NCBI GenBank assembly: GCA_951406725.2
Contig: OX597814.1
Location: forward strand, 20,026,001-20,090,000
Length of the DNA: 64,000 bases
Source of the DNA: Octopus vulgaris
Lineage: Eukaryota
Reading direction: 5' to 3'
Shown here: positions 1,646 through 29,880 of the stretch, one piece after another
Layout: the number at the start of each line of letters is the position of its first letter
Numbering within the stretch: the first letter of the stretch is position 1
Program-made: the position numbers and the translations under genes
Notes under the pieces: generated by a model
Told to the model about the DNA's origin: nothing
The model's database searches: none
The model's input: the letters and a program-made list of their open reading frames with translations, nothing else

Positions 1646-2930
1646 TCACCGAAAATTTTACCCATAAATTTTTCGAAAATTTTCACTGAAAATTTTACAC
1701 AAAAATTTTTCGAAAATTTGCACCAAAAATTTTACCCAAAAATTTTTCGAGATTCTTCACCGAAAATTTAACCCAAAAATAGATTTATGTTATTGCTGCT
1801 GCTCCTTTATGTGTATATATAGAGTGAATTCTCGTTTACTACTTCTGTCACGATGCCTCGCCATCCACAATAAACCAGATTCTGGTTTACACTTAACAAC
1901 TATGACGATGTCGACGTTAAATAGACTTCAGCATATGGAGCATATTCGTTATATGGTTTTTCGAAAATTTTAACCGAAATTTTTAACAAAAATTTTTTGA
2001 AAGTTTTTCGCGAAAATTTTCCCCAAAAATTTATCGAAAATATTCACCTAAAATTTTACCCGAAAATTTTTAGAAAATTTTCACTGAATATTTAACCCAA
2101 AAATTTTTCGAAAATTTTCACCGAAAATTTTAGCCAAAACTTTTTCGAAAATTTTCACCGAAAATTTTACCCAAAACTTTTTTGAAAACTTTCACCAAAA
2201 CTTTTCCGAAAATTTTACACGAAGAATTTCAACAGATTTTTCCGAAAATTTTAAACGAAAACGATGTCGACGTTTATACACTTCAGCATATGGAGCATAT
2301 TCGTTATATTGTTTTCGCAAATTTTAACCAAAATTTTTACCGAAAATTTTCCCCAAAAATTTATCGAAAATTTTCACCTAAAATTTTACTCAGAAATTTT
2401 TGGAAAATTTTCACTGAAAACATTACCCAAAAATTTTTAGAAAATTTTACCCAAAAATTTTTAGAAAGTTTTCACCACAAATTTTACCCAAAAAGTTTTC
2501 GAAAATTTTCACAGAAAATTTTACCCCAAAATGACTTTCCATAATTTGTGATATTCGGACAGCTGGCCTTCCATACTTTGTGATTTTGGCACTACTAGCC
2601 TTCCATACATTGTGATTTTGGCACCACTGGCCTTCCATACTTTGTGATTTTGGCACCGCTGTCCTTCCATACTTTGTGATTTTGGCACCGCTGGCCTTCC
2701 ATACTTTTTGATTTTGGCACCGCTGGCCTTCCATACTTTTTGATTTTGGCATTTTCAATGTACAATTTCAGCTAAAACATTTTCCGGAAATTTTCACTGA
2801 AAATTTTAACCAAAAATTTTTCGAAACTTTTGAGAACATTTACCCAGGAATTTTCAGAAAATTTTCACCGAAAACGATGTCGACATTTATAGACTTCAGC
2901 ATATAGAGCATGTTCGTTATATGGTTTTTC
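1645..2930. repeat. A/T-tract satellite (12-13-bp quasi-palindromic monomers cgaaaattttcac / ccaaaaattttt) with Rep-like cassettes
   Basis: Continuous AAAATTTT monomers, often in a ~37-bp trimer. Confidence 0.9.
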
Positions 2931-2988
2931 TACAGGTGGTGTACAAAACAAACAGATGTAGTAGTATAACGCTCAGGAATAGAAAAAT

Positions 2989-3024
2989 CTTTTACGTTTC
3001 GAGCCTACGCTCTTCTACAGAAAG
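2989..3024 (-). ncRNA. Degenerate minimal type I hammerhead-like motif in a probable Penelope pLTR fragment (second copy 11705-11740)
   Basis: Minus strand cuuu-CUGUAGA-A-gagc(guag)gcuc-GAAACGUA-aaag. Stem I, stem II and GAAA are present; the core has U in place of the conserved A6. Confidence 0.5.
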
Positions 3025-3065
3025 GGACACAGAAAAAACAAGGAGAGAAAAAATGTGTGTAGTGG

Positions 3066-3435
3066 CTGAGCAAAACGCCCCCGTCCAATGGACGGTGCTG
3101 AGTTGTCAAACATTTAAACCAAATTTTCTCTAAACAACTTCTCCGACCGTCCCATAGGCCTCCCCTTTGAGAAGCACTGATTAAACCTAAATTTGAGACA
3201 CCAGCAAAAGAAGAAATAAAAATAGACTTCTTTTCTATTCCAAAGAAAAACGATTTCCCACGGCTTTATCGATCGCATTCTCACCTGGAATCGATTTTTG
3301 TAATTTTTTCAAGACTTATACACACCCTGATACCGTCGGTATCTACATATCAAATTTGAGCGCAATCGGGTGGAGGATGCCCGAGATCCTAGAAACCACA
3401 CACACAGACAGACTGAACGGATTTTATATAAGAGA
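3066..3435 (-). mobile_element. Non-autonomous Helitron-like element (second copy 11782-12152)
   Basis: Minus strand starts A|TCTCTTATATAAAA followed by a (GT)-rich tract. It has a 3' hairpin ccgtcc-att-ggacgg (3081-3095) ~10 nt before a degenerate CTAG (ctcag). Confidence 0.6.
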
Positions 3436-3834
3436 TTTGTTACAGAAATAACTAAACTTTTAGATCGACAAATCTTCCGCTCTCTATCACCACCAAATTA
3501 TCGATATATATTTACCAAACTTTTTGACTATCTCTTTCTCTGTATGCGTATTAATAACCACGCATGACTTTCATTTTCTTTAAAACTTCGTCTTCTAATA
3601 TTATACTTTCATTTTATGATACACTGCTTATCGCGCACAAAATGCTTAGCTTCCAAATCCTGTTTACTGACTGAGTAAAAATGATCAAAGTTTAAACCCC
3701 TAAAGTTTTTCTAAAAAACCTTTTGAAATACATGCTGCACAAAATAGGATTCATCGTGAAAAGTATATCAATATACCAAATTTGAAACTTTTACATAATT
3801 CTAAAATTTCAAAATCTGTGTCAGCGACAGAAAA

Positions 3835-3835
<1 letters not shown>

Positions 3836-3920
<85 letters not shown>
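3836..3920. repeat. (TC)n microsatellite (copy at 12554-12627)
   Basis: Perfect dinucleotide run. Confidence 0.98.
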
Positions 3921-3923
<3 letters not shown>

Positions 3924-3990
3924 ATTCGTCTATCTCTTTCATTTTCTCGTGGTAAACTTTCCCACTGTATAAAATTATATCGCTCATGTT

Positions 3991-5166
3991 GAATCTGATG
4001 TCACTACCTTGAGTTCAGCAAGGCCTTTGACAGGGTGGGTCATAAGATCCTCTTGCAAAAACTATCCCACACTGGTGTCTCCGGAAGAACCTAACACGTT
4101 GTTGTCGAAGGAGGAAAATCAAGCCCAGCCAAAGTCAGTAGTGGCGTTCCACTATTGTGTTGGGCCCACTTCTTTTCATCATCTATTTCAATGACATTAC
4201 TGACATCATCAAGCACAGTAACATAAGAATCTTTGCAGATGATTCCAAGATTCAGAAGGTCATCAATGAAGTGGGTGACCCGGTATGCCTTCAGTCAGAT
4301 CTACTGGCTGAGGACAAATTTGAGTTAATCTACTTCGGAAAGAGGATACCATGAAACTCCCATACTCCCTTCCTTCAGGTGAAACGGTTATGGCATCCAA
4401 CAACATCAGAGAGTTGGGATTAATTGTAGACAGCAACATAAACTGTGTCTCTCATATAAACAGCAAAGTTAACATGGCCCGCAGGATGTGTTCCTGGATT
4501 CTCGGAACTTTCCAGTCGAGAGATATCCACACCATTATCCTTCTCTTCTCTACTTTTTCCCGACCCCACCTTCAATACAGCTGTCCACTGTGGTCGCCCC
4601 ACACGAAACAAAGTATCATCAAAATTGAAACACCTCAAAGGACAATTACAAAAAAGATAGCTGGCATGACAGGCCTTGACTGTGAGGGTCGACTAGAAAA
4701 GCTCAAGCTTTTTTCCCCTCCAACGCCACCGTGAGTGCAACATCATCTGCATGATGTGGAAAATGTTCCATCGGCATTGCCCAAATGATGTTGACATCGC
4801 CTCTAAGATACACTCAAGACTTGGGCCCTGTGCTATCCGCCCACAACATAAATCATACTCGCATTACGTTACAACAATACGTCACAATTATTTCACCTCA
4901 GTTGGCCCCACTCTCTTTACACCAAAACACATTAAAACAGAAACAGACTCCATTAAGTTCAAAAAGTCTTTGAACAAATTCCTTCAAAAAATTCCGGATA
5001 AATCTCCTACATCCGGATATGTCTCCGTAAACAATAACTCTCTCCTCATGTTGGCCATGTTGTCCGATTCCTGATTTGAATGACTTTGCCAGGTGGTGCT
5101 ATTAAGTTAGACATGGCCTTGGTCAATACTGGCCGAAACCTATCAAAGTATCAAAATATCAAAATA
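3991..5166 (+). mobile_element. 5'-truncated CR1/L2-clade LINE (RT C-terminal half + 3' tail), degenerate
   Basis: FSKAFDRV, LGPLLFIIYFND, IFADDSKI, RPHLQYSCPLWSPH motifs across frameshifts; tail of (tatcaaaa)-like repeats. Confidence 0.88.
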
Positions 5167-5239
5167 AAGCGTTGTAGCTTTATACCAATATGCTGCATAG
5201 AGAGTTTTACTCCAGGACCACTTTCTGAATAGCTTTCCA

Positions 5240-5980
5240 ATAAATTTTATGAAAGCTCAGCCTAGAAGGTGGTCGAGTGCGTCTATTAGACTACGTCTGC
5301 AATTTTGCTCAGATTAAGCACTATTATTTCTACTAAGTTACGATCAAAGAAACTCGTTGGTGTCACCTTAACATTATGGATGGGTGCCTTATAATTTGTG
5401 AAGCAGGTGTTCCGGGTATTTTTACCTCTTATTGGGTGGAACACTGTGTGTTCCATGAGTAACATGTTTGTAAGGACAAGTAGAGACACTGCCTACTTTC
5501 GCTTATGCAGTGAGATACCTGCGAGGAGGCATCCCTCAGGCCATTCGACATTAGGAAGATCGAAGTATTCAGGGGGAGTATATGAAGGCTGTCATCAAGG
5601 TGGGTTAATACCTCTTCCATCACTATGAGGCTATCTTCGAATGAGCCCCCATAATTTGGAGAGCATCTGCTAAGCGACATGTAGTACTTATTACCACTTT
5701 GATTTGTGTAATGTGCACAACCAGTGTGTCATAGACTGAATTTGAGTGTGACAGCAAGACAATAGACATTACATCTTCCCGGATGAACATCGCAACTCTA
5801 CTATGAGCTCTTTTTCTCCTATCAGTTCGAAACACAACATACTTTGGTATGTGTGTTTCACCATTTGCTATGTCAGCAGTCAAAATGCATTTCTGTTAGT
5901 GCCATGCATATTGCTCGATTACATGTAACTGGGGCTTTGTGCTGATGGGATGTTACAAGGCCACTGGCATTCAGCAGTAA
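5240..5980 (-). mobile_element. LINE apurinic-like endonuclease fragment (copy at ~13940-14690)
   Basis: ALTEMHF...ETHIPKYVVFRTDRRKRAHSRVAMFIRE resembles the APE motifs LTETH...Y..R.DR...GGVA. Confidence 0.65.
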
Positions 5981-6204
5981 CTCTGTCTGTATACATACAT
6001 GCATGCATCCATCCATCAATCCATCCATCCATCCATACATACATACATACATACATACATACATACATACATACATGTACGTATGTATAAGCATGTATGT
6101 CAACTGAGATAAATAGACAGACAGACAGTAAAAATTATATAATTTCGTAGACGTAGAAATGCTGTATGATTAGAGGGCAATTGGAACATACCAAATAGTT
6201 GGAT

Positions 6205-6546
6205 ATTGGGGAGACCTCCTTCGGTCATGAATGACCATGGGATTGCACCTAGAAAGTTACCCTCCGAGGTACAAGTCCGGGCAAGGTTGCTTATGGAAGG
6301 CCAGCAGTTGCCCATGCATACCAGCCTCTCCTCTCCAAGTCACCGATGGTATCCGAGGGAAAGACAACGGCTGATGCAGTTTGGCACCAGTAATGTCGCA
6401 ACTCATTTCTATAGCTGAATTAACAAGAGTAACGTGAAATAAAGTGTCTTGCTCAAGAACACAACACCTAGCCCGGTCCATTATTCGAACTCACAACCTC
6501 ACGATCGTAAGCTCGAGGCTCTAACCACTGAACCATGCGCCTTCAC
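6205..6546 (-). mobile_element. tRNA-derived SINE, family A (copies 14964-15303 minus, 33528-33870 plus)
   Basis: Head gtgaaggcgcatggttcagtggttagagc (A box) and gttcgaa (B box); body shared among the three copies. Confidence 0.8.
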
Positions 6547-6719
6547 AATTGGGTATTACATGTCGACAATATAGTGGCAATCTAGTTCACTTTTCTTATA
6601 TTCTGTGTCAACGAGAGAATTCAAGGGAAATAACTACAAAATATACTTTTAGAGTTGTCTCCTCTTGAAAATTTTATTTTAAAGCTAAATAAAACTGACG
6701 TACGATTCTGCTGAAGGCC

Positions 6720-6882
6720 ACATCATCATCATCATCACCATCGTTTAACTGGGATCTGGGAAGTTCACGGGTGCCAGGCGAGGCTGGCAACGGCCAAGAT
6801 CGGATGGTCTTGTTACGTATATATGTATGTGTGTATGTATGTATATGTGTATATATATATATGTATGTATGTATGCGTGTGC

Positions 6883-6927
<45 letters not shown>

Positions 6928-6930
6928 TAC

Positions 6931-6992
<62 letters not shown>

Positions 6993-7000
6993 GCATGTAT
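6720..7000 (-). repeat. RTE-type 3' end with (ATG)n tail abutting a compound (TA)n/(CA)n microsatellite (copies 15478-15826, 18975-19270)
   Basis: catcatc...gtttaac...gggatctgggaag matches the 3' end of the RTE element at 58633-59540. Confidence 0.75.
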
Positions 7001-7317
7001 ATAATCATGTTCCATGCTTGCATGTGTTGCACAGAAATGTTTTTCAGTGCCTACTGGAAGCATAATCCAGACACACCATAAATTGTGCAGACATGCTAAA
7101 CACTAAGGCAATTGTCATTTTATTCATTCTTTCACTCATTCATCCATTCATCCATCCATTCATCCATTCATCCATCCATTCATCCATTCATACATACATA
7201 CATCTTTTGTGCGTGTGTGTGTAATTGCACACACAATTACGGAGAAAGAGAGTGAGAAATGGTAAAGTGTAATGCATAAATGAAAATCAGAAGAATTCCT
7301 TTTTTTCTTTGTTGCAG

Positions 7318-7371
7318 ATTGCAGAAGAGATGGAAAAAGAAAGAAAAATGTTTCAGTTACAAGCATGTGAA
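7318..7371 (+). CDS. ASAP1: ASAP-family exon, copy 2
   Basis: Identical 54-nt exon with intact AG/GT sites in macro-unit 2. Confidence 0.75.
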
Positions 7372-8734
7372 GTAAGTATCTTTAATGACAAGACGGGCAT
7401 CTGACTGTAAAGCAATGCTTTAGTAATATTTATTCGTCTGACCTTTACTACCACTGCAAAATAGACAATATAATGAACAAAATATCAGAATGAAAATTGT
7501 ATTTTTATCATTCAGCTGGTCATTATATTTCTTGACCATCCAACACTGACATCAACAGATCAGCTGTCCTCTATTATAATGACCATCACTACTGACATGT
7601 CATGTTTACCAGGTCACTATGTAACTGACCACTAATAACTGATATCTACTTATTGCTAATGTATATGTAATAAACCCTTAAAGAGAGAGCCCCATGATTA
7701 CCACAGTCCAATGACTGAAACAAGAAAAGGACAAAAGATAGATAGTCCCCCAAAACATTTAGTCATGGGACCCCTAGGCTAATCCCTGCTTTGATAGTGA
7801 AATTGGGCTTAACTCTAGCATTTAATCCAGCCATTTCTGGTCCAGATATTCTCCTGGTTTTATGTTAAAACTGAGCAGATCCAATGTCTCACACCTACCC
7901 TACAAGGTCATTATAAAAATAAACAACAACATCATAGAAATTGTGAAGCTATGAGAAAATGCATGATTAATTCGAAACAATGTGAATAAATAAGGTTTAT
8001 TCTAGCTTTCCATACTTTGTGATTTTGGGACTCGTAGCTTTCCATACATTGTGATTTTGGCACTGCTAGCTTTCCATACTTTGTGATTTTTGCATTGCCA
8101 GATTTCCATACTTTGTGAATTTAGAATTGCTAGGTTTCCATACTTTGTATTTTGGCAATGCTAGGTTTCCATACTTTGTGATTTTTTTCATTGCTAGCTT
8201 TCCATACTTTGCGATTTTGGCATTGCTAGATTTCCATACTTTGTGAATTTGGAATTGCTAGGTTTCCATACTTTGTATTATGGCAATGCTAGGTTTACGT
8301 ACTTTGTGATTTTGTTATTGCTAGATTTCCATACTTTGTGAATTTGGAATTGCTAGGTTTCCATACTTTGTATTATGGCAATGCTAGGTTTACGTACTTT
8401 GTGATTTTGTTATTGCTAGCTTTCCATACTTTGTGATTTTGGCACTGCTTGGTTTCCATACTTTGTGGTTTTGGCACTGCTAGATCTCCATATTTTGTGA
8501 TTGTGGCACTGCTAGCTATCCATACTTTTTGATTTTGGCACTGCTAGGTTTCCATACTTTGTGATTTTGGCACTGCTAGGTTTCCATACTTTGTGATTTT
8601 GGCACCGCTGTTTTTCCATACATTGTGATTTTGGCACCTCTGGCCTTGCATACTTTATGATTTTGGCACCTCTGGCCTTCCATACTTTGTGATTTTTGCA
8701 CCACTGGCCTTCCATACTTTGTGATTTTGGCATT

Positions 8735-11640
8735 TTCACCGAAAATTTTACACGTTAATTTTTCGAAAATTTTCACCAAATATTTTCCGAAAATTTTCAC
8801 TGAAAATTTTACACAAAAATTTTACCCAAAAATTTTTCGATATTGTTCACCGAAAATTTTACCCAAAAATAGATTTATGTTATTGCTAAAAATAGATGTT
8901 TATGTGGCTGCTGCTACTACTTTCTGTGTATATATAGAGTGAATTCTGGTTTACTACTACTGTCAAGATGCCTCGCCATTCACGATACACCAGATTCTGC
9001 TTTACACTTAACAACTATGACAATGTCGACGTTTATAGACTTCAGCATATGGAGCATATTCGTAATATGGTATTTCGACAATTTTCACCGAAAATTTTAC
9101 CCAAAAATTTTTTTTAAATTTTTGCCGAAAATTTTCACCAAAAATATTTCGAAAATTTTGACCAAAAATTTTTCCCAAAAATTTTTGGAAGATTTTAACC
9201 AAATATTTTACGAAAATTTTCACCGAAAATTTTAACCAAAAATTTTTCGAAGATTTTACCCAAAAATTTTACGAAAATTTTGAACGAAAATTATTTAAAA
9301 GTTCTCACCGAAAATTTTCCCCACAAAATTTTTGCAGAATTTTCACCGAAAATTTTACCCAAAAATAGATTTATGTTATTGCTAAAAATAGATTTTTATG
9401 TGGCTGCTTTCTGTGTATATATAGAGTGAATTCTGGTTTACTACTACTGTCAACATGCCTCACCATCCACGATACACCAGATTCTGCTTTACACTTAACA
9501 ACTATGACGATGTTGACGTTTATTGACATTAGAATATAGAGCATATTGGTTATATGTTTTTCCGAAAATTTTCACCGAAATTTTTACCCAAACATTTTTT
9601 GAAAATTTTTGTTGAAAATTTTCCCTAAAAATTTAGTGAAAATTTTCACCTAAAGTTTTGCTTAAAAATTTTTTGAAAATTTTCACCGGAAATAATACCT
9701 AAAAATTTTGCGAAAATTTTCACCGAAAATTTTACTCAAAACTTTTTCAAAAGCACCGCTGGCCTTCCATACTTTGTGATTTTGGCACTGCTAGCTTTTC
9801 AGCATATGGAGCATATTCGTAATATTGTATTTCGAAAATTTTCAACGAAAATTTTACCCAAAAATATTTTGAAAATTTTTACCGAAATTTTCAGCAAAAA
9901 TATTTCGAAAATTTTCACCGAAAATTTTGCCCAAAAATTTTTCGAAAATTTTACACAAAAATAGATATTGCTAAAAATAGATTTTTATGGGCTGCTGCTG
10001 TTGCTTTCTGTGCATATATAGAGTGAATTCTGGTTTACTGTCACGATGCCTCAGCATCCACAATAAACCAGATTCTGCTTTACACTTAACAACTATGACG
10101 ATGTCGACGTTTATAGACTTCAGCATAGGGAGCATATTCGTTATATGGTTTTTCGAAAATTTTAACCGAAATTTTTAACAAAAAATTTTTTTTTTATTTT
10201 TGCCGAAAATTTTCACCAAAAATTTATCGAAAATATTCACCTAAAATTTTACACGAAAAATTTCACCAAATTTTTCCTAAAATTTTAACCGAAAACGATG
10301 TCGACGTTTATAGACTTCAGCATATGGAGCATATTCGTTATATTGTTTTTCGCAAATTTTAACCTAAATTTTTACCAAAAATTTTCCCCAAAAATTTATC
10401 GAAAATTTTCATTTAAAATTTTACTCACAAATTTTTCGAAAGTTTTCACTGAAAACATTACCCAAAAATTTTTAGAAAATTTTCACCACAAATTTTACCC
10501 AAAATTTTTCGAAAATTTTCACCAAAAATTTTCCGAAAATTTTCACGGAAAATTTTACCCAAAAATGGCTTTACATTCTTTGTGATTTTGGCATCGCTGG
10601 CCTTCCATACTTTGTGATTTTGGCACCACTGGCTTTCAATACTTTGTGATTTTGGCACCGCTGGCCTTCCATACTTTGTGATTTTGGCACTGCTAGCTTT
10701 TCCCCAAAAATTTATCGAAAATTTTCACCTAAAATTTTACTCAAAAATTTTTCAAAAATTTTCACAGAAAATGCTACCCCAAAATTTTTCGAAAATTTTC
10801 ACTAAAAGTTTTAACAAAAACGTTTATGTGGCTGCTTTCTGTGTATATATAGAGTGAATTCTGGTTTACTAGTATTGTCAACATGCCTCACCATCCACGA
10901 TACACCAGATACTGCTTTACACTTAACAACTATGACGATGTCGACGTTTATACACTTCAGCATAGGGATCAAATTCGTTATTTGGGTTTTCAAACATTTT
11001 GAACGAAAATTTAACCCAATAATTTGTTGAAAATTTTCACTGAAAATTTCACCCCAAAATGGCTTTCCATACTTTGTGATTTTGGCACCGCTGGCCTTCC
11101 ATACTTTGCGATTTTAGAACCACTGGCTTTCCATACTTTGTGATTTTGGCATCGCTGGCCTTCCATACTTTGTGATTTTAGAACCACTGGCTTTCCATAT
11201 TTTGTGATTTGGCACCGCTGGCCGTCCATACTTTGTGATTTTCGGACCACTATCCTTCCATACATTGTGATTTTTGGCACCACTGGCCTTCCATACTTTG
11301 TGATTTTGGCACCGCTGTCCTTCTATACTTTGTGATTTTGGCACCGCTAGCCTTCCATACTTTTTTATTTTGGCACCGCTGGCCTTCCATACTTTTTGAT
11401 TTTGGCATTTTCAACGTACAATTTTACCTAAAAATTTTCCGAAAATTTTCACTGAAAATTTTTACCCAAAAATCTTTCGATACTTTTGAAAACTTCTACC
11501 CAGGAATTTTCAGAAAATTATCACCGAAAACGATGTCGACATTTATAGACTTCAGCATATGTAGCATGTTCGTTATTTGGTTTTTCTAAAATTTTCACCG
11601 ATAATTTTAACCAAATCTTTTTCGAAAATTTTCACCGAAG
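8735..11640. repeat. Expanded A/T-tract satellite with four full Rep-like cassettes
   Basis: Same monomers; cassette ATGs at 8968, 9455, 10046, 10883. Confidence 0.9.
8968..9075 (+). pseudogene. Endogenous CRESS-DNA (circovirus-like) Rep N-terminal fragment, representative copy
   Basis: Translates MPRHSRYTRFCFTLNNYDNVDVYRLQHMEHIRNMVF. (R)xCFTLNNY is RCR motif I of Circoviridae/CRESS Reps, followed at the usual spacing by the Y-x-V-F strand that precedes motif II. Confidence 0.65.
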
Positions 11641-12551
11641 ATGAAGACAGGTGGTGTACAAAACAAACAGATGTATTAGTATAACGCTCAGGAGTAGAAA
11701 AAATCTTTTACGTTTCGAGCCTACGCTCTTCTACAGAAAGGGACACAGAAAAAACAAGGAGAGAAAAAATGTGTGTAGTGGCTGAGCAAAACGCCCCCCG
11801 TCCATTGGACGGTGCTGACTTGTCAAACATTTAAACCAAATTTTCTCAAAACAACTTGTCCGACCGTCCCATAGGCCTCCCCTTTGAGAAGCACTGATTT
11901 AACCTAAATTTGAGACACCAGCAAAAGAAGAAATAAAAATAGACTTCTTTTTTATTCCAAAGAAAAACGATTTCCCACGGCTTTATCGATCGCATTCTCA
12001 CCTGGAATCGATTTTTGTAATTTTTTCAAGACTTATACACGCCCTGATACCGTCGGTATCTACATATCAAATTTGAGCGCAATTGGGTGGAGGATGCCCG
12101 AGATCCTAGAAACCACACACACAGACAGACTGAACGGATTTTATATAAGAGATTTGTTACAGAAATAACTAAACTTTTAGATCGACAAATCTTCCGCTCT
12201 CTATCACCACCAAACTGTCGTTATATATTTACCAAACTTTTTGACTATCTCTTTCTCTGTATGCGTATTAATAACCACGCATGACTTTCATTTTCTTTAA
12301 AACTTCGTCTTCTAATATTATACTTTCATTTTATGATACACTGCTTATCGCGCACAAAATGCTTAGCTTCCAAATCCTGTTTACTGACTGAGTAAAAATG
12401 ATCAAAGTTTAAACCCCTAAAGTTTTTCTAAAAAACTTTTTGAAATACATGCTTCATAAACTAGGATTCATCGTGAAAAGTACATCAATATACCAAATTT
12501 GAAACTTTTACATAATTCTAAAATTTCAAAATCTGTGTCAGCGACAGAAAA

Positions 12552-12630
<79 letters not shown>

Positions 12631-12697
12631 ATTCGTCTATCTCTTTCATTTTCTTGTGGTAAACTTTCCCACTGTATAAAATTATATCACTCATGTT

Positions 12698-13872
12698 GAA
12701 TCTGATGTCACTACCTTGAGTTCAGCAAGGCCTTTGACAGGGTGGGTCATAAGATCTTCTTGCAAAAACTATCCCACACTGGTGTCTCTGGAAGAACCTA
12801 ACACGTTGTTATCGACGGAGGAAAATCAAGCCCAGCCAAAGTCAGTAGTGGCGTTCCACTATTGTGTTGGGCCCACTTCTTTTCATCATCTATTTCAATG
12901 ACATTACTGACATCATCAAGCACAGTAACATAAGAATCTTTGCAGATGATTCCAAGATTCAGAAGGTCATCAATGAAGTGGGTGACCCGGTATGCCTTCA
13001 GTCAGATCTACTGGCTGAGGACAAATTGAGTTAATCTACTTCGGAAAGAGGATACCATGAAACTCCCATACTCCCTTCCTTCAGGTGAAACGGTTATGGC
13101 ATCCAACAACATCAGAGAGTTGGGATTAATTGTAGACAGCAACATAAACCGGGTCTCTCATATAAACAGCAAAGTTAACATGGACCGCAGGATGTGTTCC
13201 TGGATTCTCAGAACTTTCCAGTCGAGAGATATCCACACCATTATCCTTCTCTTCTCTACATTTTCCCGACCCCACCTTGAATAGAGCTGTCCACTGTGGT
13301 CGCCCCACACGAAACAAAGTATCATCAAAATTGAAACACCTCAAAGGTCAATTACAAAAAAGATAGCTGGCATGACAGGCCTTGACTGTTAGGGTCGACT
13401 AGAAAAGCTCAAGCTTTTTTCCCTCCAACGCCACCGTGAGTGCAACATCATCTGCATGATGTGGAAAATGTTCCATCGGCATTGCCCAAATGATGTTGAC
13501 ATCGCCTCTAAGATACACTCAAGACTTGGGCCCTGTGCTATCCGCCCACAACATAAATCATACTCGCATCACATTACAACAATACGTCACAATTATTTCA
13601 CCTCAGTTGGCCCCACTCTCTTTACACCAAAACACATTAAAACAGAAACAGACTCCATTAAGTTCAAAACGTCTTTGAACAAATTCCTTCAAAAAATTCC
13701 GGATAAATCTCCTACATCCGGATATGTCTCCGTAAACAATAACTCGCTCCTCAAGTTGGCCATGTTGTCCGATTCCTGATTTGAATGACTTTGCCAGGTG
13801 GTGCTATTAAGTTAGACATGGCCTTGGTCAATACTGGCCGAAACCTATCAAAGTATCAAAATATCAAAATAA
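12698..13872 (+). mobile_element. CR1/L2-clade LINE fragment, duplicate in macro-unit 2
   Basis: Near-identical to 3991-5166. Confidence 0.88.
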
Positions 13873-15635: not shown

Positions 15636-15825
<190 letters not shown>

Positions 15826-16870: not shown

Positions 16871-19133
16871 GAATATATATATATACACACATGCATGTAT
16901 ATAATCATGTTCCATGCTTGCATGGGTTGCACAAAAATTTCTTTCAGTGCCTACTGGAATCATAATCCAGACACATACCGTAAGCATCCACATAAATCTT
17001 TAGCATTGCTAGCTTTCCATACTTTGTGATTTTGTTATTGCTAGCTTTCCGCACTTTGTGATTTTGGCACTGCTAGGTTTCCATACTTTGTGATTTTGGC
17101 ACTGCTAGCTTTCCATACTTTCTGATTTTGGCACAGCTAGGTTTCGATACTTTGTGATTTTGGCACTGCTAGCTTTCCATACTTTCTGATTTTGGCACTG
17201 TTAGGTTTCCATACTTTGTGATTTTGGCACTGTTAGCTTTCCATACTTTGTGAATTTGGCACTGCAAGATTTCCATACTTTGTGGTTTTGGCACTGCTAG
17301 CTCACCATACTTTGTGATTTTGGCACTGCTAGCTTTCCATACTTTGTGATTTTGGCACTGCTAGCTTTCCATGCATTGTGATTTTGGCACTGCTAGATTT
17401 CCATACTTTGTGAATTTGGCTAGATTTCCACTGCTAGGTTTCCATACTTTGTGATTTTGGCACTGCTAGCTTTCCATACTTTCTGATTTTGGCACTGTTA
17501 GGTTTCCATACTTTGTGATTTTGGCACTGTTAGCTTTCCATACTATGTGAATTTGGTACTTGCTAGATTTCCATACTTTGTGAATTTGGAATTGCTAGGT
17601 TTCCATACTTTGTATTTTGGCAATGCTAGGTTTCCATACTTTTTTGATTTTGTCATTGCTAGCTTTCCATACTTTGTGATCTTGGCTTTGCTAGCTTTCC
17701 ATACTTTGTGATTTTGGCATTGCTAGGTTTCCATATTTTGTGATTTTGGCACTGCTAGGTTTCCATAATTTGTGATTTTGGCACCGCTGCCTTTCCATAC
17801 ATTGTGATTTTGGCACCACTGACCTTCCATACTTTGTGATTTTGGCATACTTTGTGATTTTGGCACCACTGGCCTTCCATACTTTGTGATTTTGGCATTT
17901 TCACTGAAAATTTTACCCATAAATTTTTCGAAAATTTTCACCAAAAATTTTCCGAAAATTTTCACTGAAAATTTTACACAAAAATTTTTGGATATTGTTC
18001 ACCGAAAATTTAACCCAAAAATAGATATATGTTATTGCTAAAAATACATTTTTATGGGCTGCTGCTGCTTCTTTCTGTGTATATATAGAGTGAATTCTGG
18101 TTTACTACTACTGTCACGATGCCTCACCATCCACAATAAACCAGATTATGCTTTACACTTAACAACTATGACGATGTCGACGTTTATAGTCTTCAGCATA
18201 TGGAGCATATTCGTTATATGGTTTTTCGAAAATTTTAACCGAAATTTAAAAAAAAAATTTTTTGAAAATTTTTGCCGAAAATTTTCCCCGAAAATATATC
18301 GACTATTTTCATATAAAATTTTACCCGAAAATTTTTCGAGAATTATCAGTGAATATTTCACCCAAAATTTTTCGAAAATTTTACCCAAAACTTTTTTGAA
18401 AATTTTCACCAAATCTTTTCCGAAAATTTTACACGAAAAATTTCCGAAAATTTTAACCCAAAACGATGTCGACGTTTATAGACTTCAGCATATGGAGCAT
18501 ATTCATTATATTGTTTTCCGCAAATTTTAACCAAAATTTTTACCGAAAATTTTCCCCAAAAATTTATCGAAAATTTTCACCTAAAATTTTACTCAGAAAT
18601 TTTTCGAAAATTTTCACTGAAACATTACCCAAAAATTTTTAGAAAATTTTACCCAAAACTTTTTAGAAAACTTTCAGCACAAATTTTACCCAAAAATTTT
18701 TCGAAATTTTCACCAAAAATTTTCCGAAAATTTTCACAGAAAATTTTACCCAAAAATGGCTTTCCATTCTTTGTGATTTCGGCACCGCTGGCCTTCCATA
18801 CTTTGTGATTTTGTGCCGCTGGCCTTTCATACTTTGTGATTTTGGCACTTTTATTATATTGTGTCAACGAGAGAATTCAAGGGAAATAACTACAAAAAGT
18901 AATTTTTAAGTTGTCTCCTCTTGAAAATTTTACTTAAAACTAAATAAAACTGACGTACGATTCTACTGAATGCCACATCATCATCATCATCATCATCGTT
19001 TAACGTCCGCTTTCCATGCTAGCATGTGTTGGACGGTTCAACTGGGATCTGGGAAGTTCACGGGGGCCAGGCGAGGCTGGCAACGGCCACGATCGGATGG
19101 TCTTTGTTACGTATATATGTATGTGTGTATGTA

Positions 19134-19210
<77 letters not shown>

Positions 19211-19214
19211 GCAT

Positions 19215-19272
<58 letters not shown>

Positions 19273-19565: not shown

Positions 19566-19619
19566 ATTGCAGAAGAAATGGAAAAAGAAAGAAAAATGTT
19601 TCAGTTACAAGCATGTGAA
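19566..19619 (+). CDS. ASAP1: ASAP-family exon, copy 3
   Basis: Same exon with one synonymous change (GAG>GAA); splice sites intact. Confidence 0.75.
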
Positions 19620-22600
19620 GTAAGTATCTTTAATGACAAGACGGGCATCTGACTGTAAAGCAATGCTTTAGTAATATTTATTCGTCTGAACTTTACTACC
19701 ACTGCTAAATAGACAATATAATGAACAAAATATCAGAATGAAAATTGTATTTTTACCATTCAGCTGGTCATTATATTTCTTGACCATCCAACACTGACAT
19801 TAACAGATCAGCTGTCCTCTATTATAATGACCATCACTACTGGCATTTCATGTTTACCAGGTCACTATGTAACTGACCACTAATAACTTATATCTACTTA
19901 TTGCTAATGTATATGTAATAAACCCTTAAAGAGAGAGCCCCAGGATTACCACAGTCCAATGACTGAAACAAGAAAAGGATAAAAGTTAGATAGTCCCCCA
20001 AAACATTTAGTCATGGGACCCCTAGGCTAATCCCTGCTTTGATAGTGAAAGTGGGCTTAACTCTAGCATTTAATCCAGCCATTTCTGGTCCAGATATTCT
20101 CCTGGTTTTATGTTAAAACTGAGCAGATCCAATGTCTCACACCTACCCTACAAGGTCATTATAAAAATAAACAACAACATCATAGAAATTGTGAAGCTAT
20201 GAGAAAATGCATGATTAATTCAAAACAATGTGAATAAATAAGGTTTACATTTGACAAAGAAATCTGAATGTTCAAGAGTTAAAGTTGTATTTGTGTGTCC
20301 TATTCTATCCATATCAGATACCATAAGCATCCACATAAATCTTTAGCATTGTTAGCTTTCCATACTTTGTGATTTTGTTATTACTAGCTTTCTGCACTTT
20401 GTGATTTTGGCACTGCTAGGTCTCCATACTTTGTGATTTTGGCACTGCTAGCTTTCCGTACTTTCTGATTTTGGCACTGTTAGGTTTCCATACTTTGTGA
20501 TTTTGGCATTGCTAGCTTTCCATACTTTGTGATTTGGCACTGCTAGTTTTCCATATTTGTGATTTTGGCACTGCTAGCTTTCCATACTTTGTGCTTTTGG
20601 CACTGCTAGCTCACCCTACTTTGTGATTTTGGCACTGCTAGCTTTCCATACTTTGTGATTTGGCACTGCTAGCTTTCCATACTTTATGATTTTGGCACTG
20701 CTGGCTCTCCATACTTTTGATTCTGGCACTGCTAGCTCTCCATACTGCAAGCTCACCATACACGATAAACCAGATTCTGCTATACACTTAACAACGGTGA
20801 CGATGTTGAGGTTCATAGACTTCAGCATATGGAGCATATTCGTTATATGGTTTTTCGAAAATTTTAACCGAAATTTTTACCAAAAAATTTTTTGAAAAAT
20901 TTTTGCCGAAAATTTTCCGCAAAAATTCATCGAAAATTTTCACCTAAAATTTTACTCTGAAATTTTTCGAAGATTTTCCCTGAAAATATTACCCAAAAAT
21001 TTTTCGAAAATTTTCACTGAAAATTTTACCCAAAAATTTTAAGAAAATTTTCACCACAAATTTTACACAAAAATTTTTCGAAAATGTTTACCGCAACTTT
21101 TACCGAAAATTTTCACTGAACATTTTCCGCAAAAATTCATCGAAAATTTTCACCTAAACTTTTACTCAAAATTTTTCGAAAATTTTTACTGAAAATATTA
21201 CCCTAAAATTTTTAGAAAATTTTCACTGAAAATTTTACCTAAAAATTTTTTGAAAATTTTACCACAAATTTTACCCAAAAATTTTTGGAAAACTTTACCC
21301 AAAAATTTTTCGAAAATTTGCACCAAAAATTTTGCGAAAATAATCACCAAAAATTTTTCGAAAATTTTCACCACAAATTTTACCCAAAAATGTTCGAAAA
21401 TTTTCACCGTAACATTTACCGAAAAATTTTCGAAAATATTCACCAAATATTTTTCGAAAATTATCCCCAAAAATTTATCGAAAATTTTCACCTAAAATTT
21501 TACTCCAAAACTTTTCGAAAATTTTCACAGAAAATTTTAACAAAAAATTTTTCGTAAATTTTCAGCACAAATATTACCCAAAAATTTTTGTAAAATTATC
21601 ACTGAAAATTTTACCCAAAACTTTTTAGAAAATTTTCACCAAAAATTTTCAGCAAAACTTTTTAGAAAATTTCCACCGAAAATTTTACCAAAAAATCTTC
21701 CGAAAATTTTCACAAAAAATTTTGCGAAAATTATCACCGAAAATTTTCCCCAAATATTTTTCGAAAATGTTCACCGAAAATTTTACCCCAAAATAGATTT
21801 GTGGCTGCTTTCTGTGCATATATAGAATAAATTCTGGTTAACTACTACTGTCAACATGCCTCACCATACACGACACACCAGTTTCTGCTATACACTTAAC
21901 GACGATAACGATGTTGAGGTTCAGAGACATCAGCATATGGAGCATATTCGTTATATGGTTTTTCGAAAATTTTAACCGAAATTTTTACCAAAAGATTTTT
22001 TTAAAATTTTTGCCGAAATTTTTCCCCAAAAATTCATCGAAAATTTTCACCTAAAATTTTACTCAGAAATTTTTCGAAAATTTTCACTGAAAATATTACC
22101 CAAAAATTTTTCGAAAGTTTTCACTGAAAATTTTACCCAAAAATTTTTAGAAAATTTTCACCACAAATTTTACACAAAAATTTTTCTAAAAATTTTTCCG
22201 TAACATTTACCGAAAACTTTTTCGAAAATTTTCACCAAATATTTTCCGAAAATTATCACCGAACATTTTCCCCTAGTATTTTTCGAAAATGTTCACCGAA
22301 AATTTTACCCAAACAGATTTATGTTATTGCTAACAATAGATTTTTATGTGGCTGCTTTCACTCTATATATACACAGAAAGCAGCAGGCACATAAAAATCT
22401 ATTTTTAGCAATAACATAAATCTATTTTGGGTAAAATTTACATTGAATATTTTCGAAAACTTTGGGTAAAATTTTCAGTGAAGATTTTCGAAAAATTTTT
22501 AGGTAAAATTTTACGTGAAAATTTTCGGCAAAAATTTTGAAAAAATATTTCGGTAGATTTTTATGTAGCTGCCTCACTATCCACGATACACCAGGTTCTT

Positions 22601-24515
22601 ATTTACACTTAACAACTATGACGATGTCGACGATTGTAGACTTCAGCATATGGAGCATATTCGTTATATGGATTTTCCAAAATTTTCACCGAAAATATTA
22701 CCCACAAATTTTTCGGAAATTTTCACTGAAAATTTTACCCAAAAATTTTTCGAAGATTTTAACCAAGAATTTTATGAAAATTTTCACCGAAAATTTTACC
22801 CAAAAATTTTTCGAAGATTTTAAACGATAACGATTTCAACGTTTATAGACTTCAGCATATTCGTTATATGGTTTTTCGTAAATTTTCACCGAAAATTTTA
22901 CCCAACATTGTTCAAAAATTTTTCACGGAAAATTTTCCCAAAAAATTCTTTGAAAATTTTTGCCGAAAATTTTCCGCAAAAATTTAGCGAAAATTTTCAC
23001 CTAAAATTTTGCATAAAAATTTTTCGGAATTTTCACCGAAAATTATGCCCAAAAATTTTGCGAAAATTTTCACCGAAAATTTTACCTAAAAATTTTTCGA
23101 AAATTTTCACCAAAAATTTTCAGAAAATTTTACACGAAAAATTTCCCCAACTTTTTCCGAAAATTTGAACCGATAACGATTTCAACGTTTATAGACTTCA
23201 GCATATGGAGCATATTCGTCGTATTGTTTTTCGTAAATTTTCACCGAAAATTTTTCCCGAAAATTGTTCAAAAATTTTTCACGGCAAAATTTGCCCAAAA
23301 ATTTTTCGAAAATTTTCAAAAAAATTAGATTTATGTTTTTGTTTAGATTTTTATGTGGCTATTGCTACTACTTTCTGTGTATATATAGATAGAATTCTGG
23401 TTTACTACTACAGTCAAGATGCCTCACCATCCATGATACACCAGATTCTGCTTTACACTTAACAACTATGACGATGTCGAAGTTATATAGACTTCAGCAT
23501 ATGGAGCATATTCGTTATATGGTTTTTCGAAAATTTTCACGGAAAATTTTTCCCAAAAATTTTTTAAGAATTTTTACCAAAACTTTTCCCCAAATATTTT
23601 TCGAAAATTTTCAACGAAAGTTTTACCCAAAAATTTTCACAAAATTTTCACCGATAATTTTCCCCAAATATTTTTCGAAAATGTTCATCGAAAATTTTAC
23701 CCAAAAATAGATTTATGTTATTGCTAAAAATAGATTTTTATATGGCTACTTTCTGAGTATTTATAGAGTGAATTCTGGTTTACTACTACGGTCAAGATCC
23801 CTCACCATCCACGATACACCAGATTCTGCTTTACACTTAACAACTATGACGATGTTAACGATTATAGACTTATATAAACTTATATTTGCCCAAAAATTTT
23901 TCGAAAATGTTTACTGAAAATTTTACCAAAAAATAGATTTATGTCAATGCTGAAAATAGATTTTTATGTGCCTGCTGCTTTCTGTGTATATATAGAGTAA
24001 ATTCTGGTTTACTACTACTGTCAAGATCCTTCATCATCCACGATACACCAGATTCTGCTATACACTTTACAACTATGACGATGTTGAGGTTCATAGACTT
24101 CAACTTATGGAGCATATTCGTTATATGGTTTTTCGAAAGTTTTAACCGAAATTTTTATTAAAAAATTTTTTGAAAATTTTTGCCGAAAATTTTCCTTAAA
24201 AATATATCGACTATTTTCATCTAAAATTTTACTCGAAAATTTTCACTGAAAATTTTACCCAAAAATTTTAACCACAAATTTTACTCAAAAGTTTTTCGAA
24301 AATTTTCACCGGAAATTTTACCGAAAAATTTTTCGAAAATTTTCAATGAAAATTTTTCGAAAGTTCTCACCGAAAATTTTCGGCAAATACTTTTCCAAAA
24401 TGTTCACCGAAAATTTTACGCAAAAATAGATTTATGTTATTGCTAAAAGTAGATTTTTATGTGGCTGCTTGCTGTGTATATATAGAGTGAATTCTGATTT
24501 ACTACTACTGTCAAC

Positions 24516-24623
24516 ATGCCTCACCAACAACGATACACCAGATTCTGCTTTACACTTAACGACTATGACGATGTTGACGTTTATAGACGTCAGCATATAG
24601 AGAATATTCGTTATATATTTTTC
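24516..24623 (+). pseudogene. CRESS Rep-like fragment copy
   Basis: MPHQQRYTRFCFTLNDYDDVDVYRRQHIENIRYIFF in the ORF track, reading on into satellite. Confidence 0.6.
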
Positions 24624-24983
24624 CGAAAATTTTCACGGAAATTTTTACCCCAAAATTTTTTGAAAATTTTTGCCGAAAATTTTCCGCAAAAATTTAGCGA
24701 AAATTTTCACCTAAAATGTTGCTTAAAAATTTTTCGAAAATTTTCACCGAAAATTATACCCAAATTTTGCGAAAATTTTCACCGAAAATTATACCCAAAT
24801 TTTGCGAAAATTTTCACCGAAAATTTTACCTAAAAATTTTTCGAAAATTTTCACCAAAAATTTTCAGAAAATTTTACACGAAAAATTTCCCCAAATAGAT
24901 TTATGTTATTGCTAAAAATAGATTTCCTGTGTCTGCTTTCTGTGTATATATAGAGTGAATTCTGGTTTACTACTACTGTCAAC

Positions 24984-25091
24984 ATGCCTCACCATCCACG
25001 ATACTCCAGATTCTGCTTTACACTTAACAACTATGACGATGTTGACGTTTATAGACATCAGCATATAGAGCATATTCGTTATAAGTTTTTC
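24984..25091 (+). pseudogene. CRESS Rep-like fragment copy
   Basis: MPHHPRYSRFCFTLNNYDDVDVYRHQHIEHIRYKFF. Confidence 0.6.
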
Positions 25092-27801
25092 CGAAAATTT
25101 TCAACGAAATTTTTACCGAAAAGTGTTTTGAAAATTTTTGACGAAAATTTACAACTAAAATTTTGCTTAAAAATTTTTCAAAAATTTTCACCGAATATTT
25201 TACCTAAAAATTTTTAGAAAATTTTCAACAAAAAACTTTCCGAAAATTTTACACGAAAAATTCCCCAAATTTTTCCGAAAATTTTAAACGATAACGATTT
25301 CAACGTTTATAGACTTCAGCATATGGAGCATATTCGTCATATGGTTTTTCGTAAATTTTCACCGAAAATTTTCCCTAAATTTTTCAAATCTTTTCACGGA
25401 AAATTTTCCCCAAAATTTTTCAAAAATTTTCACGAAAATTTTACCCCAAAATTTTTAGAAAATCTTCACTGAAAATTTTACCAAAAAATTTTTCGAAAAT
25501 TTTCACCATAAATTTTTCACGAAAATCTTTCGAAAATTTTCACCAGAAATTTTTCGAAAATTTTCACTGAAACATTTACCGAAAACTTTTTCGAAAATTT
25601 CCACCAAATATTTTCCGAAAATTATCACCGAACATTTTCCCCTAATATTTTTCGAAAATGTTCACCGAAAATTTTACCCAAACATAGATTTATGTTATTG
25701 CTAAAAATAGATTTTTATGTGGCTGCTTTCACTCTATATATACACAGAAAGCAGCAGGCTCATGAAAATCTATTTTTCGCAATAACATAAATATATTTTT
25801 GGGTAAAATTTACAGTGAATATTTTCGAAAACTTTTTGGGTAAAATTTTCAGTGCAAATTTTCAAAAAATTTTTAGGTAACATTTTACGTGAAAATTTTC
25901 GGCAAAAATTTTCCATAAATATTTCGGTAGATTTTTATGTGGCTGCCTCACCATCCACGATACACCAGGTTCTGCTTTACGCTTAACAACTATAACGATG
26001 TCGACGATTATAGACTTCAGCATATGGAGCATATTCGTTATGTGGTTTTTCGACAATTTTCACCGAAAATATTACCCACAAATTTTTGAAAAATTTTCAA
26101 CGAAAATTTTACCCAAAAATTTTTCCAAGATTTTAACCAAAAATTTTACGAAAATTTTCACCGAAAATTTTAACCAAAAATTTTTGGAAGATTTTACCCA
26201 AAAATTTTACGAAAATTATTCGAAAGCTCTCAATAAAAATTTTCCCCAAAAATTTTTAGAAAGTGTTCACCGAAAATTTTACTCCAAAATAGATTTATGT
26301 TATTGCTAAAATTAGATTTTTATGTCGCTCCTTTCTGTGTGTATATAGAGTGAATTCTGGTTTACTACTACTGTCAAGATAACTCACCATCCACGATACA
26401 CCAGATTCTGCTTTACAATGAACAACTATGACGATGTTGACGTTTATAGACATCAGCTTATAGAGCATATTCGTTATATGCTTTTCCGAATATTTTCACC
26501 GAAATTTTTACCCAAAAATTCTTTGAACATTTTTGCCGAAAATTTTCCCCAAAAATTTAGCATAAATTTTCACCTAAAATTTTGCTTAAAAATTTTTCTA
26601 AAATAATAATAATGTCGACGATTATAGACTTCAGCATATGGAACATATTCTTTATATGGTTTTTTGAAAATTTTCACCGAAAATATTACCCACAAATTTT
26701 TCGAAAATTTTCACCGAAAATTTTACCCAAAAATTTCTTGAACATTTTTGCCGGAAATTTTCCCAAAAAATTTAGCATAAATTTTCACCTAAAATTTTGC
26801 TTAAAAATTTTTCGAAAATTTTCACCGAAAATAATACCTGAAAATTTTGCAAAAATTTTCACCGAAAATTTTACCCAAAAATTTTCCACAAAAATTTTTC
26901 GAAAATTTTCACCAAAAATTTTAGCCAATAATTTGTTGAAAATTTTCACCAAAAATTTTCCGAAAACTTTTACGGAAAATTTTACCCGAAAATGACTTTC
27001 CATTCTTTGTGATTTCGGCACCGCTGGCCTTCCATACTTTGTGATTTTGGCACCACTGGCTTTCAATACTTTGTGATTTCGGCACCGCTGACATTCCATA
27101 CCTTGTGATTTTGGCACTGCTAGCTTTTTACCAAAAATTCATCGAAAATTTTCACCTAAAATTTTACTCAAAAATTTTTCAAAAATTTTCACTGAAAATT
27201 TTAGCCCCAAATTTTTTTTGAATTTTCACCACAAATTTTAACAAAAAATTTGTCGAAAATTTTGACCGAAACATTTACCGAAAACTTTTTTGAAAATTTT
27301 CACCAAATATTTTCCGAAAATTATCACCGAACATTTTCTCCAAATATTTTTCCAAAATGTTCGCCGAAAATTTTACCCAAACATAGATTTATGTTATTGC
27401 TAAAAATAGATTTTTATGTGGTAGATTTTTATGTGGCTGCTTCACCATCCAGGTTCTGCTTTACACTTAACAACTATGACGATGTCGACGATTATAGACT
27501 TCAGCATATGGAGCATATTCGTTATATGGTTTTTCTAAAATTTTCACCGAAAATATTACCCAAAAATTTTTCGAAAATTTTTACCGAAAATTTTACCCAA
27601 AAATTTTTCGAAGAATTTAGCCAAAAATTTTACGAAAATTATTCGAAAGCTCTCACCGAAAATTTTCCCTAAAAATTTTTGGAAAATGTTCACCGAAAAT
27701 TTTACCCAAACATAGATTTATGTTATTGATAAAAATAGATTTTTATGTGGCTGCTTTCTGTGTATATATAGAGTGAATTCTGGTTTACTACTACTGTCAA
27801 C

Positions 27802-27909
27802 ATGCCTCACCATCCACGATACACCAGATTCTGCTTTACAATGAACAACTATGACGATGTTGACGTTTATAGACATCAGCATATAGAGCATATTCGTTAC
27901 ATGTTTTTC
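27802..27909 (+). pseudogene. CRESS Rep-like fragment copy
   Basis: MPHHPRYTRFCFTMNNYDDVDVYRHQHIEHIRYMFF. Other motif-I copies near 1853, 9455, 10046, 10883, 18119, 20752, 21856, 22570, 23419, 23797, 24026, 25943, 26379, 27437. Confidence 0.6.
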
Positions 27910-29880
27910 CGAAAATATTCACCGAAATTTTTACCCAAAAATTTATTGATCATTTTTGCCGAAAATTTTGCACAAAAATTTAGCATAAATTTTCACCTAA
28001 AATTTTGCTTAAAAATTTCAATCGAAAATAATACCTAAAAATTTTGCGAAAATTTTCACTGAAAATTTTGCCATACTTTGTGATTTTGGCACCGCTCGCT
28101 TTCTATACTTTGATTTTGGCACCGCTGGCCTTCCATACTTTGTGATATTGGCACCGCTGGCCTTCCATACTTTGTGATTTTGACACCGCTGGCCTTCCAT
28201 AATTTTTCCAAAATTTTCACCGAAAATTTTACCCAAATATTTTTCGAAAATTTTCCTCAAAAATTTTTCCAAAATTTTCATCGTAAATTTTCACCGAAAA
28301 TTTTACCCAAATATTTTTCCAAAATTTTTACCGAAAATTTTCAACGAAAATTTTCCCCAAAAATTTTTCCAAAATTTTCACCGAAAATTTTCTCCAAAAA
28401 TTTTTCAAAAATTTTCACCGAAAATTTTCCCCAAAGCTTTTTCCAAAATTTTCACTGAATATTTTCCACGAAAATTTTCCCCAAACATTTTTCCAAAATT
28501 TTCACCGAAAATTTTATCCAAAAATTTTTCCAAAATTTACACCGAAAATTTTGCCCAAAAATTTTTCGAAAATATCCACCGAAAACTTTACCCAAAAATT
28601 TTTTGAAAATTTTCACTGAAAATTTTACCAAAAAATCTTTCCAAAATTTTAACATAAAATTTTCTCCAAAAATTTTTCCAAAATTTTCACCGGAAATTTT
28701 CGACAATTTTCACTGAAAATTTTACCAAAAAATTTTTCCAAAATTTTCGAAAATTTTCACTGAAAATTTTACCAAAAAATTTTTCCAAAATTATCACCGA
28801 AAATTTTGTCCAAAAATTTTTCCAAAATTTTCCCCAAAAAATACTTTGATTTTTCGAAAAATTTTGCCATACTTTGTGATTTTGGCACCGCTCGCTTTCC
28901 ATACTTTGTGATTTTAGCACCGCTGGCTTTCAATACTTTGTGATTTTGCCACTGCTAGCTTTTCCCCAAAAATTTTTCGAAAATTTTCCCCAAAAATTTT
29001 TCGAAAATTTTGCCCAAAAATTTTTCGAAAATATCCGCCGAAAATTTTACCAAAAAGTCTTTGCAAAATTTTCACAGAAAATTTTCTCCAAAAATTTTTG
29101 CAAAATTTTCACGGGAAATTTTCGAAAATTTTCACTGAAAATTTTACCAAAAAATTTTTCCAAAATTTTCACCGAAAATTTTGTCCAAAAATTTTTCGAA
29201 AATTTTCACCAAAAAATACTTTGTGATTTTTCGAAAAATTTTGCCATACTTTGTAATTTTGGCACCGCTGGCCTTCCATACTTTGTGATTTTAGCACCGC
29301 TGGCCTTCCATACTTTGTGATTTTGGCACCGCTGGCCTTCCATACCTTTTCAAAATTTTTCACCGAAAATTTTACCCTAAAAATTTTTCCAAAATTTTCA
29401 CTGAAAAGTTTACCCAAAAATTTTTCCAAATTTTCACCGAAAGTTTTCTCCAAAAATTTTTCCTAAATTTTGAACGAAAATTTTGTCAAAAAATTTTTCG
29501 AAAATTTTCACCGAAAACTTTGCCCAAAAATTTTTCGAAAATTTTCCCAAAAAATACTTTGTGATTTTTCGAAAAATTTTGCCATACTTTGTGATTTTGG
29601 CACCGCTCGCTTTCCATACTTTGATTTTGGCACCGCTGGCCTTCCATACTTTGTGATTTTGGCACCGCTGGCCTTCCATACTTTGTGATTTTGGCACCAC
29701 TGGCCTTCCATACTTTTTCCAAAATTTTCACCGAATATTTTACCCAAAAATTTTTGGAAAATTTTCCCAAAAATTTTTTGGAAAATTTTTACTGAAAATT
29801 TTACCCAAAAATTTTGGGAAAATTTTCACCGAAAATTTTGCACGAAAATTTTTGGAAAATTTTCACCGCAAATTTTTCCC

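Follow-up and report, generated by a model that had tools for sequence, protein, structure and literature searches.

The 5′ end of a Rep gene from a CRESS-DNA virus has, in the reading that we favour and hold to be likely, been captured once into a dispersed minisatellite of the Octopus vulgaris genome, where it would since have spread, probably as a passive passenger, without encoding a working Rep. We analysed the resulting cassette in a 64-kb stretch of octopus DNA (G000:C1:20026001-20090000; hereafter, the window) and across the genome (2.8 Gb, 227 contigs). The cassette is of Rep ancestry, has a single 3′ junction, is present at at least 35 loci on 13 contigs, decays near-neutrally, and sits in a carrier that also occurs without it. 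It is an ssDNA-virus fossil whose amplification involved an unusual carrier, a minisatellite, and points to a route by which a ~200-bp scrap of an ssDNA virus reached well over 100 genomic copies as a dispersed minisatellite module. This route differs both from capture by LINEs and from tandem repetition of a viral piece with its own origin.

Using one natural copy as blastn query against the 64-kb window, 33 cassette pieces were found between positions 1775 and 27897 (Table 1). These comprised 18 pieces with motif I, 10 3′ partials, most of which begin at the same internal point, and 5 leader-only pieces, in agreement with the ~18 motif-I copies plus partials counted by an earlier, sequence-only reading of this DNA. 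That reading had also placed the coding part always on the + strand, and indeed all coding parts lie there, including the 12 copies that keep the exact motif-I frame; the inverted pieces are two leader-only ones (22357-22427 and 25728-25798). Among the 18 motif-I copies, 6 are open (ATG plus 36 codons), 4 contain stops, 2 are frameshifted, and the other 6 are truncated or without an ATG. The A/T-tract satellite in which the cassettes were said to be interspersed is present as a 37-bp repeat, but it forms four separate array blocks rather than one tract. Besides this unit (S), the blocks contain a 32-bp minisatellite unit (M), and other host DNA lies between them. Part of the copy number in the window stems from ~7-8 kb segmental duplications with 93-98% identity, within which the first three array blocks are located, and the mean identity among cassettes is 87.7% (91 pairs, 14 long copies). 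Judged from these alignments, the segmental duplications are more recent than most of the cassette divergence.

Table 1 Array blocks, cassette pieces and an example cassette in the window
Feature	Position	Strand	Content
Array block 1	1063..2929	+	M, S, frameshifted cassette 1775-1961, 3′ partials 2261-2315, 2874-2929
Array block 2, motif-I cassettes	8002..11642	+	8867-9075, 9363-9561, 9966-10153, 10822-10990
Array block 2, 3′ partials	within 8002..11642	+	n=3, at 9798, 10295, 11530
Array block 3	16999..18848	+	Stop-bearing cassette 18019-18226; 3′ partial 18463-18517
Array block 4, first motif-I cassettes of 12	20342..29880	+	Starts 20752, 21805, 22567, 23323, 23705, 23931
Array block 4, remaining motif-I cassettes of 12		+	Starts 24424, 24893, 25944, 26287, 27449, 27712
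Array block 4, 3′ partials		+	n=4, at 22823, 23173, 25287, 26611
Array block 4, leader piece and distal part			Leader piece (27383); repeats M and S extend to ~29880
Leader fold-back 1	22311..22427	.	Forward piece then inverted piece
Leader fold-back 2	25684..25798	.	Within local ~0.9-kb duplication of fold-back 1
Example leader	8867..8967	+	~25-bp unit present twice; (GCT)n; ATG 39 nt downstream of TATA-like box
Example coding part	8968..9075	+	36 codons, CRESS Rep N-terminus with motif I; enters 37-bp repeat before motif II

Including its leader, the cassette measures ~200 bp and not the ~170 bp given at first. The leader had been taken to hold a viral promoter. A TATA-like box is present, and its distance to the ATG, 39 nt in the cassette compared with 42 nt in a viral insertion elsewhere in the genome (L055, described below), makes it plausible that the near leader is viral; at the DNA level, the leader matches L055 only weakly (E 0.86). 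No origin hairpin was detected in the cassette leader (folding z 1.38 and -0.64 versus shuffles) and the canonical nonanucleotide was not found there, while the same origin test was positive for the stem-loop of L055 (z -4.19). The cassette hence lacks the stem-loop origin with nonanucleotide upstream of rep by which CRESS-DNA virus genomes are recognised. Scored cassette matches all stop by residue ~38, consistent with the proposed truncation before motif II, and motif II (HUH), motif III (YxxK), and the SF3 helicase are absent from the cassette matches of a genome-wide tblastn search, so that no active Rep is encoded. The alignment to a longer Rep fossil (L011) extends two residues past the cassette-repeat junction, at which microhomology would therefore be possible. 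The 37-bp S unit itself folds as a hairpin (z -3.97).

Several lines of comparison identify the cassette as the 5′ end of a Rep gene that came from a CRESS-DNA virus. CRESS Reps are defined by motifs I (UUTU), II (HUH), and III (YxxK), as set out in the accessible text of PMC6668415; the cassette has motif I near its N-terminus together with an endonuclease-domain profile match, and is devoid of the remaining motifs and the SF3 helicase. A profile check had been suggested for the 36-aa peptide, which by itself gave neither a Pfam nor a PDB match. It did match a test profile built from 148 public CRESS Reps with the closest relatives left out: 16 of 2164 window pieces scored at E<=6e-4, all of them cassette copies (lowest E 5e-7), compared with E 0.58 for the best non-cassette piece and E 0.46 for the best piece of the reversed-window control. 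With the same profile, one cassette copy reached 25.9 bits versus at most 7.1 in the 1958 scored of 2000 shuffles. In pairwise comparison, the window peptide shares 21 of 35 residues with the N-terminus of L011 (PF02407 Rep, G000:C14), and cassette peptides are 60-66% identical to this Viral_Rep fossil. Identity to L011 by codon position (22/31/18 of 35, and 25/32/19 for the copy in L016) is what past selection at the protein level would produce. Best among 334 targets were L011 and the Logan proteins P0006 and P0156, and in a 39-row tree two cassette copies joined P0006 (98/90), then L011 and P0034 (98/91); the two copies, with residues in no more than 35% of the columns, are placed down to this level only. 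IMG/VR contributed 80 loci with 33-50% identity, and the best N-terminal match among them, L066, was set aside since it scores below the octopus-linked Reps and groups apart from them.

The missing Pfam and PDB matches of the isolated peptide could suggest that the Rep likeness arose by chance, or that the cassette, read in a different frame, is part of a transposon or a host gene. We regard this as exceedingly improbable: profile, pairwise, codon-position, and tree evidence all argue for Rep, and identity of 60-66% to a Rep with motifs I, II, and III refutes chance likeness. As for another frame, no better match was obtained, the other five frames of one cassette copy having no Pfam match and window positions 1-31000 no Rfam match.

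Genome-wide tblastn yielded 143 matches, 141 of which were cassette-type (150 of 173 candidates scored). Together with further matches, among them those of an exact cassette 25-mer, these by our own count, a lower bound, represent the at least 35 loci on 13 contigs, 33 of which were retrieved, with both orientations occurring across the genome. Longer Rep matches at L015, L017, L019, and L024 proved to be repeat-derived artefacts. The 25-mer occurred 57 times and its control not once. Out of 38 regions examined, 37 hold a total of 232 cassette hits, and 140 hits span the coding part, which gives a minimum for the genome-wide copy count that had been proposed as a check. Of the 140 coding-span copies, 63 have an ATG and an open frame, frameshifts affect 32 and stops 26, the ATG is missing from 12, and 7 carry in-frame indels; 58 of 140 thus have a stop or frameshift. 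Pairwise differences were spread evenly over the codon positions (0.104 / 0.095 / 0.100), and pN/pS among the same copies was nominally slightly under 1 (0.89, or 0.80 without CpG codons), values that come from non-independent pairs. CpG columns were more variable (0.154, n=10) than the others (0.094). The cassette thus decays roughly neutrally; the feature is real and most likely functionless, and passive decay may be compatible with a role at the RNA level.

Copies are almost as alike between regions (90% identity) as inside them (91%). The same 9 repeat bases follow codon 36 in 99 of 196 copies, and the next seven commonest variants are repeat-like too, which points to a single capture. This common junction with the 37-bp repeat, recurring at many loci, is in line with the proposed capture into a repeat and co-amplification. 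In four public sequencing runs with four organism labels from four studies, 186, 48, 121, and 131 contigs matched the cassette; one of these runs may be the source sample, and the labels are coded and need not equal the number of species. Loose ends of the contigs from these runs were mostly repeat-like or leader-like, and none of those inspected (24 of 97 rows) continued into Rep. In two further runs, which may be RNA, 10 and 2 contigs matched the cassette, and organism labels E and F, with only 5 and 4 low-depth contigs, were left out of the comparison.

The carrier repeat is independent of the cassette. The 32-bp M unit has 179 exact matches in the genome, and of 20 regions picked by M away from the listed cassette hits, 19 were free of cassette, the remaining one having a 35-bp hit outside the array. 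Arrays are dispersed mosaics of three modules with internal inversions, 0.2-10 kb in size as far as long arrays are not collapsed in the assembly, and their ends fall in any module. Classical satellites, by contrast, are defined by a single unit repeated head to tail over long stretches of heterochromatin. Other DNA has entered the carrier as well: a 230-bp piece in an M/S array (L158:4760-4989, G000:C5) matches the 18S rRNA start and the DNA preceding it, as identified through an rDNA unit after a direct Rfam search had missed it. Others like it are scattered over the genome (40 matches scored among 84 candidates). The piece may have arrived via a dispersed rDNA-derived repeat, and two regions neighbouring L158 hold other co-amplified host pieces.

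Location on many chromosomes, the hairpin of the 37-bp unit, and the internal inversions might also be expected if the composite arrays were non-autonomous mobile elements (rolling-circle, Helitron-like, or Rep-mobilised) with the cassette as cargo or cis element, and GRD elements of Nicotiana have been likened to Helitrons in the accessible text of PMC5014472. We consider such mobility improbable. Neither shared termini nor a consistent target-site duplication was found among 47 bounded blocks, a few of which are unrelated microsatellites and in which the duplication finder was swamped by repeat words. Array-end repeats of >=6 bp were no commoner (31/47) than in mismatched controls (138/228), and those at 10 bp (13/47 versus 23/228) were mostly words of the repeat itself. 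Arrays begin and end inside any module, the cassette is without stem-loop or nonanucleotide, and it is absent from most of the arrays selected through M. The arrays therefore do not show the conserved termini and target-site signature of MITEs, Helitron-derived, or SINE-like elements.

Insertion sites could be compared with empty copies of a known repeat for 4 of 39 arrays. Three insertions replace ~78, ~68, and ~20 target bases (the 68 being based on a single empty copy), and the fourth, a small array at L166, has a 14-bp duplication, the only clear target duplication seen. The latter would agree with LINE-mediated retrotransposition of array transcripts, a process with precedent in the LINE-1-linked expansion of carnivore circovirus fossils to 10-20 copies (as reported in PMC6372831). 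However, target bases are deleted in three of the four informative cases, the array ends inspected have neither a poly(A) tail nor a common 3′ end, and the shared flanks of the arrays have no constant LINE partner, which together make retrotransposition very improbable.

Under the favoured reading of a single capture followed by passive carriage, a piece of viral DNA would have been patched into a germline break in the hairpin-prone 37-bp repeat. Slippage and unequal exchange could then have made the cassette a module of the array, and could also have given rise to the derived 3′ partial module and the local fold-backs. Array pieces would have been copied to new sites via repair-linked templated insertion or as reinserted circles. 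As a module of single origin, the cassette may serve as a lineage tag for tracing the movement of arrays between chromosomes.

A passive history has to be weighed against the idea that the arrays are a source of piRNAs or siRNAs, forming a host memory against an octopus CRESS lineage and possibly transcribed from a captured viral TATA promoter. The high copy number, the presence of both orientations genome-wide, the retained TATA-like leader, and the repeated endogenisation of the same lineage speak for it, as do the siRNAs that arise from tandem repeats of yam EGV1 according to the accessible text of PMC5014472. Still, the carrier also takes up unrelated DNA, and the piece is short and has ~30% DNA divergence from its closest genomic relative; we therefore see a small-RNA memory as unlikely. 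The same low probability is given to its fullest form, in which the virus-derived promoter and Rep start would be a working minisatellite module that transcribes arrays on many chromosomes and feeds anti-CRESS small RNAs. If true, this would amount to minisatellite-borne antiviral memory in a cephalopod.

Other CRESS fossils in the genome place the favoured passenger reading in context. A PF02407 scan of the genome (3 candidates scored) returned one Rep, L011 (C14; E 5e-23), which carries motifs I, II, and III. Its top PDB matches (E 2e-14) are, we presume, circovirus Reps, and two further ones (E 2e-9) presumably nanovirus-type. A search for a longer parental Rep, as had been recommended, thus found a relative and no direct parent: none of 11 EVE loci examined was closer to the cassette than L011, the best EVE match at the DNA level, and L011 was rejected as direct parent with only 71% identity over 77 bp. 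In its surroundings, L011:780-2016 (G000:C14) is an endonuclease-only Rep fragment lodged in a split IS1595/Merlin-type transposase.

Protein P0034 served as a bridge to L055 on C15 (L137:4804-7004, G000:C15), a near-complete, ambisense CRESS-type insertion that includes a TATA-like box and, in its stem-loop, the canonical nonanucleotide. Its Rep is disrupted where the motif II region has been lost; motif III and the helicase are present, the helicase-containing frame spanning 354 aa. The opposite strand holds an Arg-rich, capsid-like ORF, whose atlas neighbours fall into clusters with ~30% Circo_capsid members (score 0.90), a match taken as a lead only. The insertion also has a terminal repeat of ~57 nt, such as the integration of a circular molecule would leave. 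Searching for the helicase led to 10 matches at 8 places, L055 itself among them. At L140 (G000:C11:25609750-25613148; 1129-2028, minus strand), an open 299-aa CRESS helicase frame (PF00910) shares 88% identity with a protein of O. bimaculoides, C-terminal tail included, and lies beside an ORF that converges on it and is akin to L137's capsid-like ORF. This is probably an old shared insertion, and the helicase frame has possibly been co-opted. Helicase motifs of the octopus relatives read G-N-S-G-K and V/I-F-D-x-T-R and differ from those of P0007 and P0016, which are of the P-G-x-G-K-S / D-D-F type; with this other motif set among its relatives, a circovirus in the strict sense is no more than a possible source of the cassette. 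Together, these comparisons suggest that the virus group behind the cassette entered octopus genomes repeatedly, and the cassette and the other fossils connect octopuses, as hosts, with an unclassified CRESS lineage.

We compared the cassette with known amplified Rep fossils, using the accessible parts of the cited papers. Nicotiana GRD2/3/5/53 and yam EGV1 likewise consist of a truncated, degenerate ssDNA-virus rep with upstream intergenic DNA that was multiplied (PMC5014472), and GRD is reported there to evolve neutrally. They differ in that the viral origin is kept, the viral piece itself is repeated, and one or two chromosomes are involved (PMC5014472), whereas the octopus cassette is a ~200-bp, origin-free module inside a host minisatellite on 13 contigs of an animal genome. 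Of the GRD-type combination, a truncated rep with a viral origin in clustered direct repeats, it has the truncated rep and lacks the origin. In CVe-Carnivora-4, a single rep endogenisation was also amplified as passenger of a host repeat, there LINE-1 with 10-20 copies (PMC6372831), while octopus has at least 140 near-full copies, carried by a mosaic of 32/37-bp minisatellite units. A geminivirus-like transposon of Tuber melanosporum has a Rep remnant multiplied (42 copies) within a host repeat and possesses transposase ORFs and 37-bp terminal inverted repeats (PMC3198968), while fixed ends and coding capacity are both absent from the octopus carrier. Rep fossils are known from mollusc genomes (CRESS-group elements, PMC6069186; Aplysia, PMC3198968), with 1-4 copies of the CRESS-group elements in bivalves and gastropods (PMC6069186). 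No mention of their amplification as repeats was found in the accessible parts of PMC6069186 and PMC3198968, and the words 'octopus' and 'cephalopod' do not occur in the accessible main text of the former, the supplements of which may list octopus elements. Our literature search, covering sources outside subscription journals, found no description of a minisatellite module derived from a Rep fragment and no matching paper on virus-derived satellite DNA or on EVEs and piRNAs of cephalopods; nor was there one on cephalopod CRESS fossils, although supplements of the cited papers may list octopus elements.

Additional sequence features were noted around the arrays. In the window, a ~54-nt exon-like piece with splice-site-like ends at 283-340 and 7314-7371 is repeated in the ~7-8 kb segmental duplications and is present upstream in L035, too. 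A degenerate stretch at 3960-5100, which by eye we take to be the 3′ part of a LINE reverse transcriptase, is inserted where array blocks 1 and 2 end and belongs to a segment (2932-6076) duplicated at 11647-14782. Array block 4 is closed by GC-rich DNA at 29881-31330 that resembles, by eye, gag plus LTR of an LTR-retrotransposon on the minus strand. Outside the window, a ~390-bp MITE-like fold-back lies immediately upstream of the cassette at L049:5180-5555, L047, and L048, near long tandem arrays of short units; this flank, shared by L047-L049, was considered as a parent element and dismissed as fold-back sequence at probably paralogous sites. Finally, window positions 34308-36395 and 44801-46899 form an inverted duplication of 2.1 kb with 97.6% identity.
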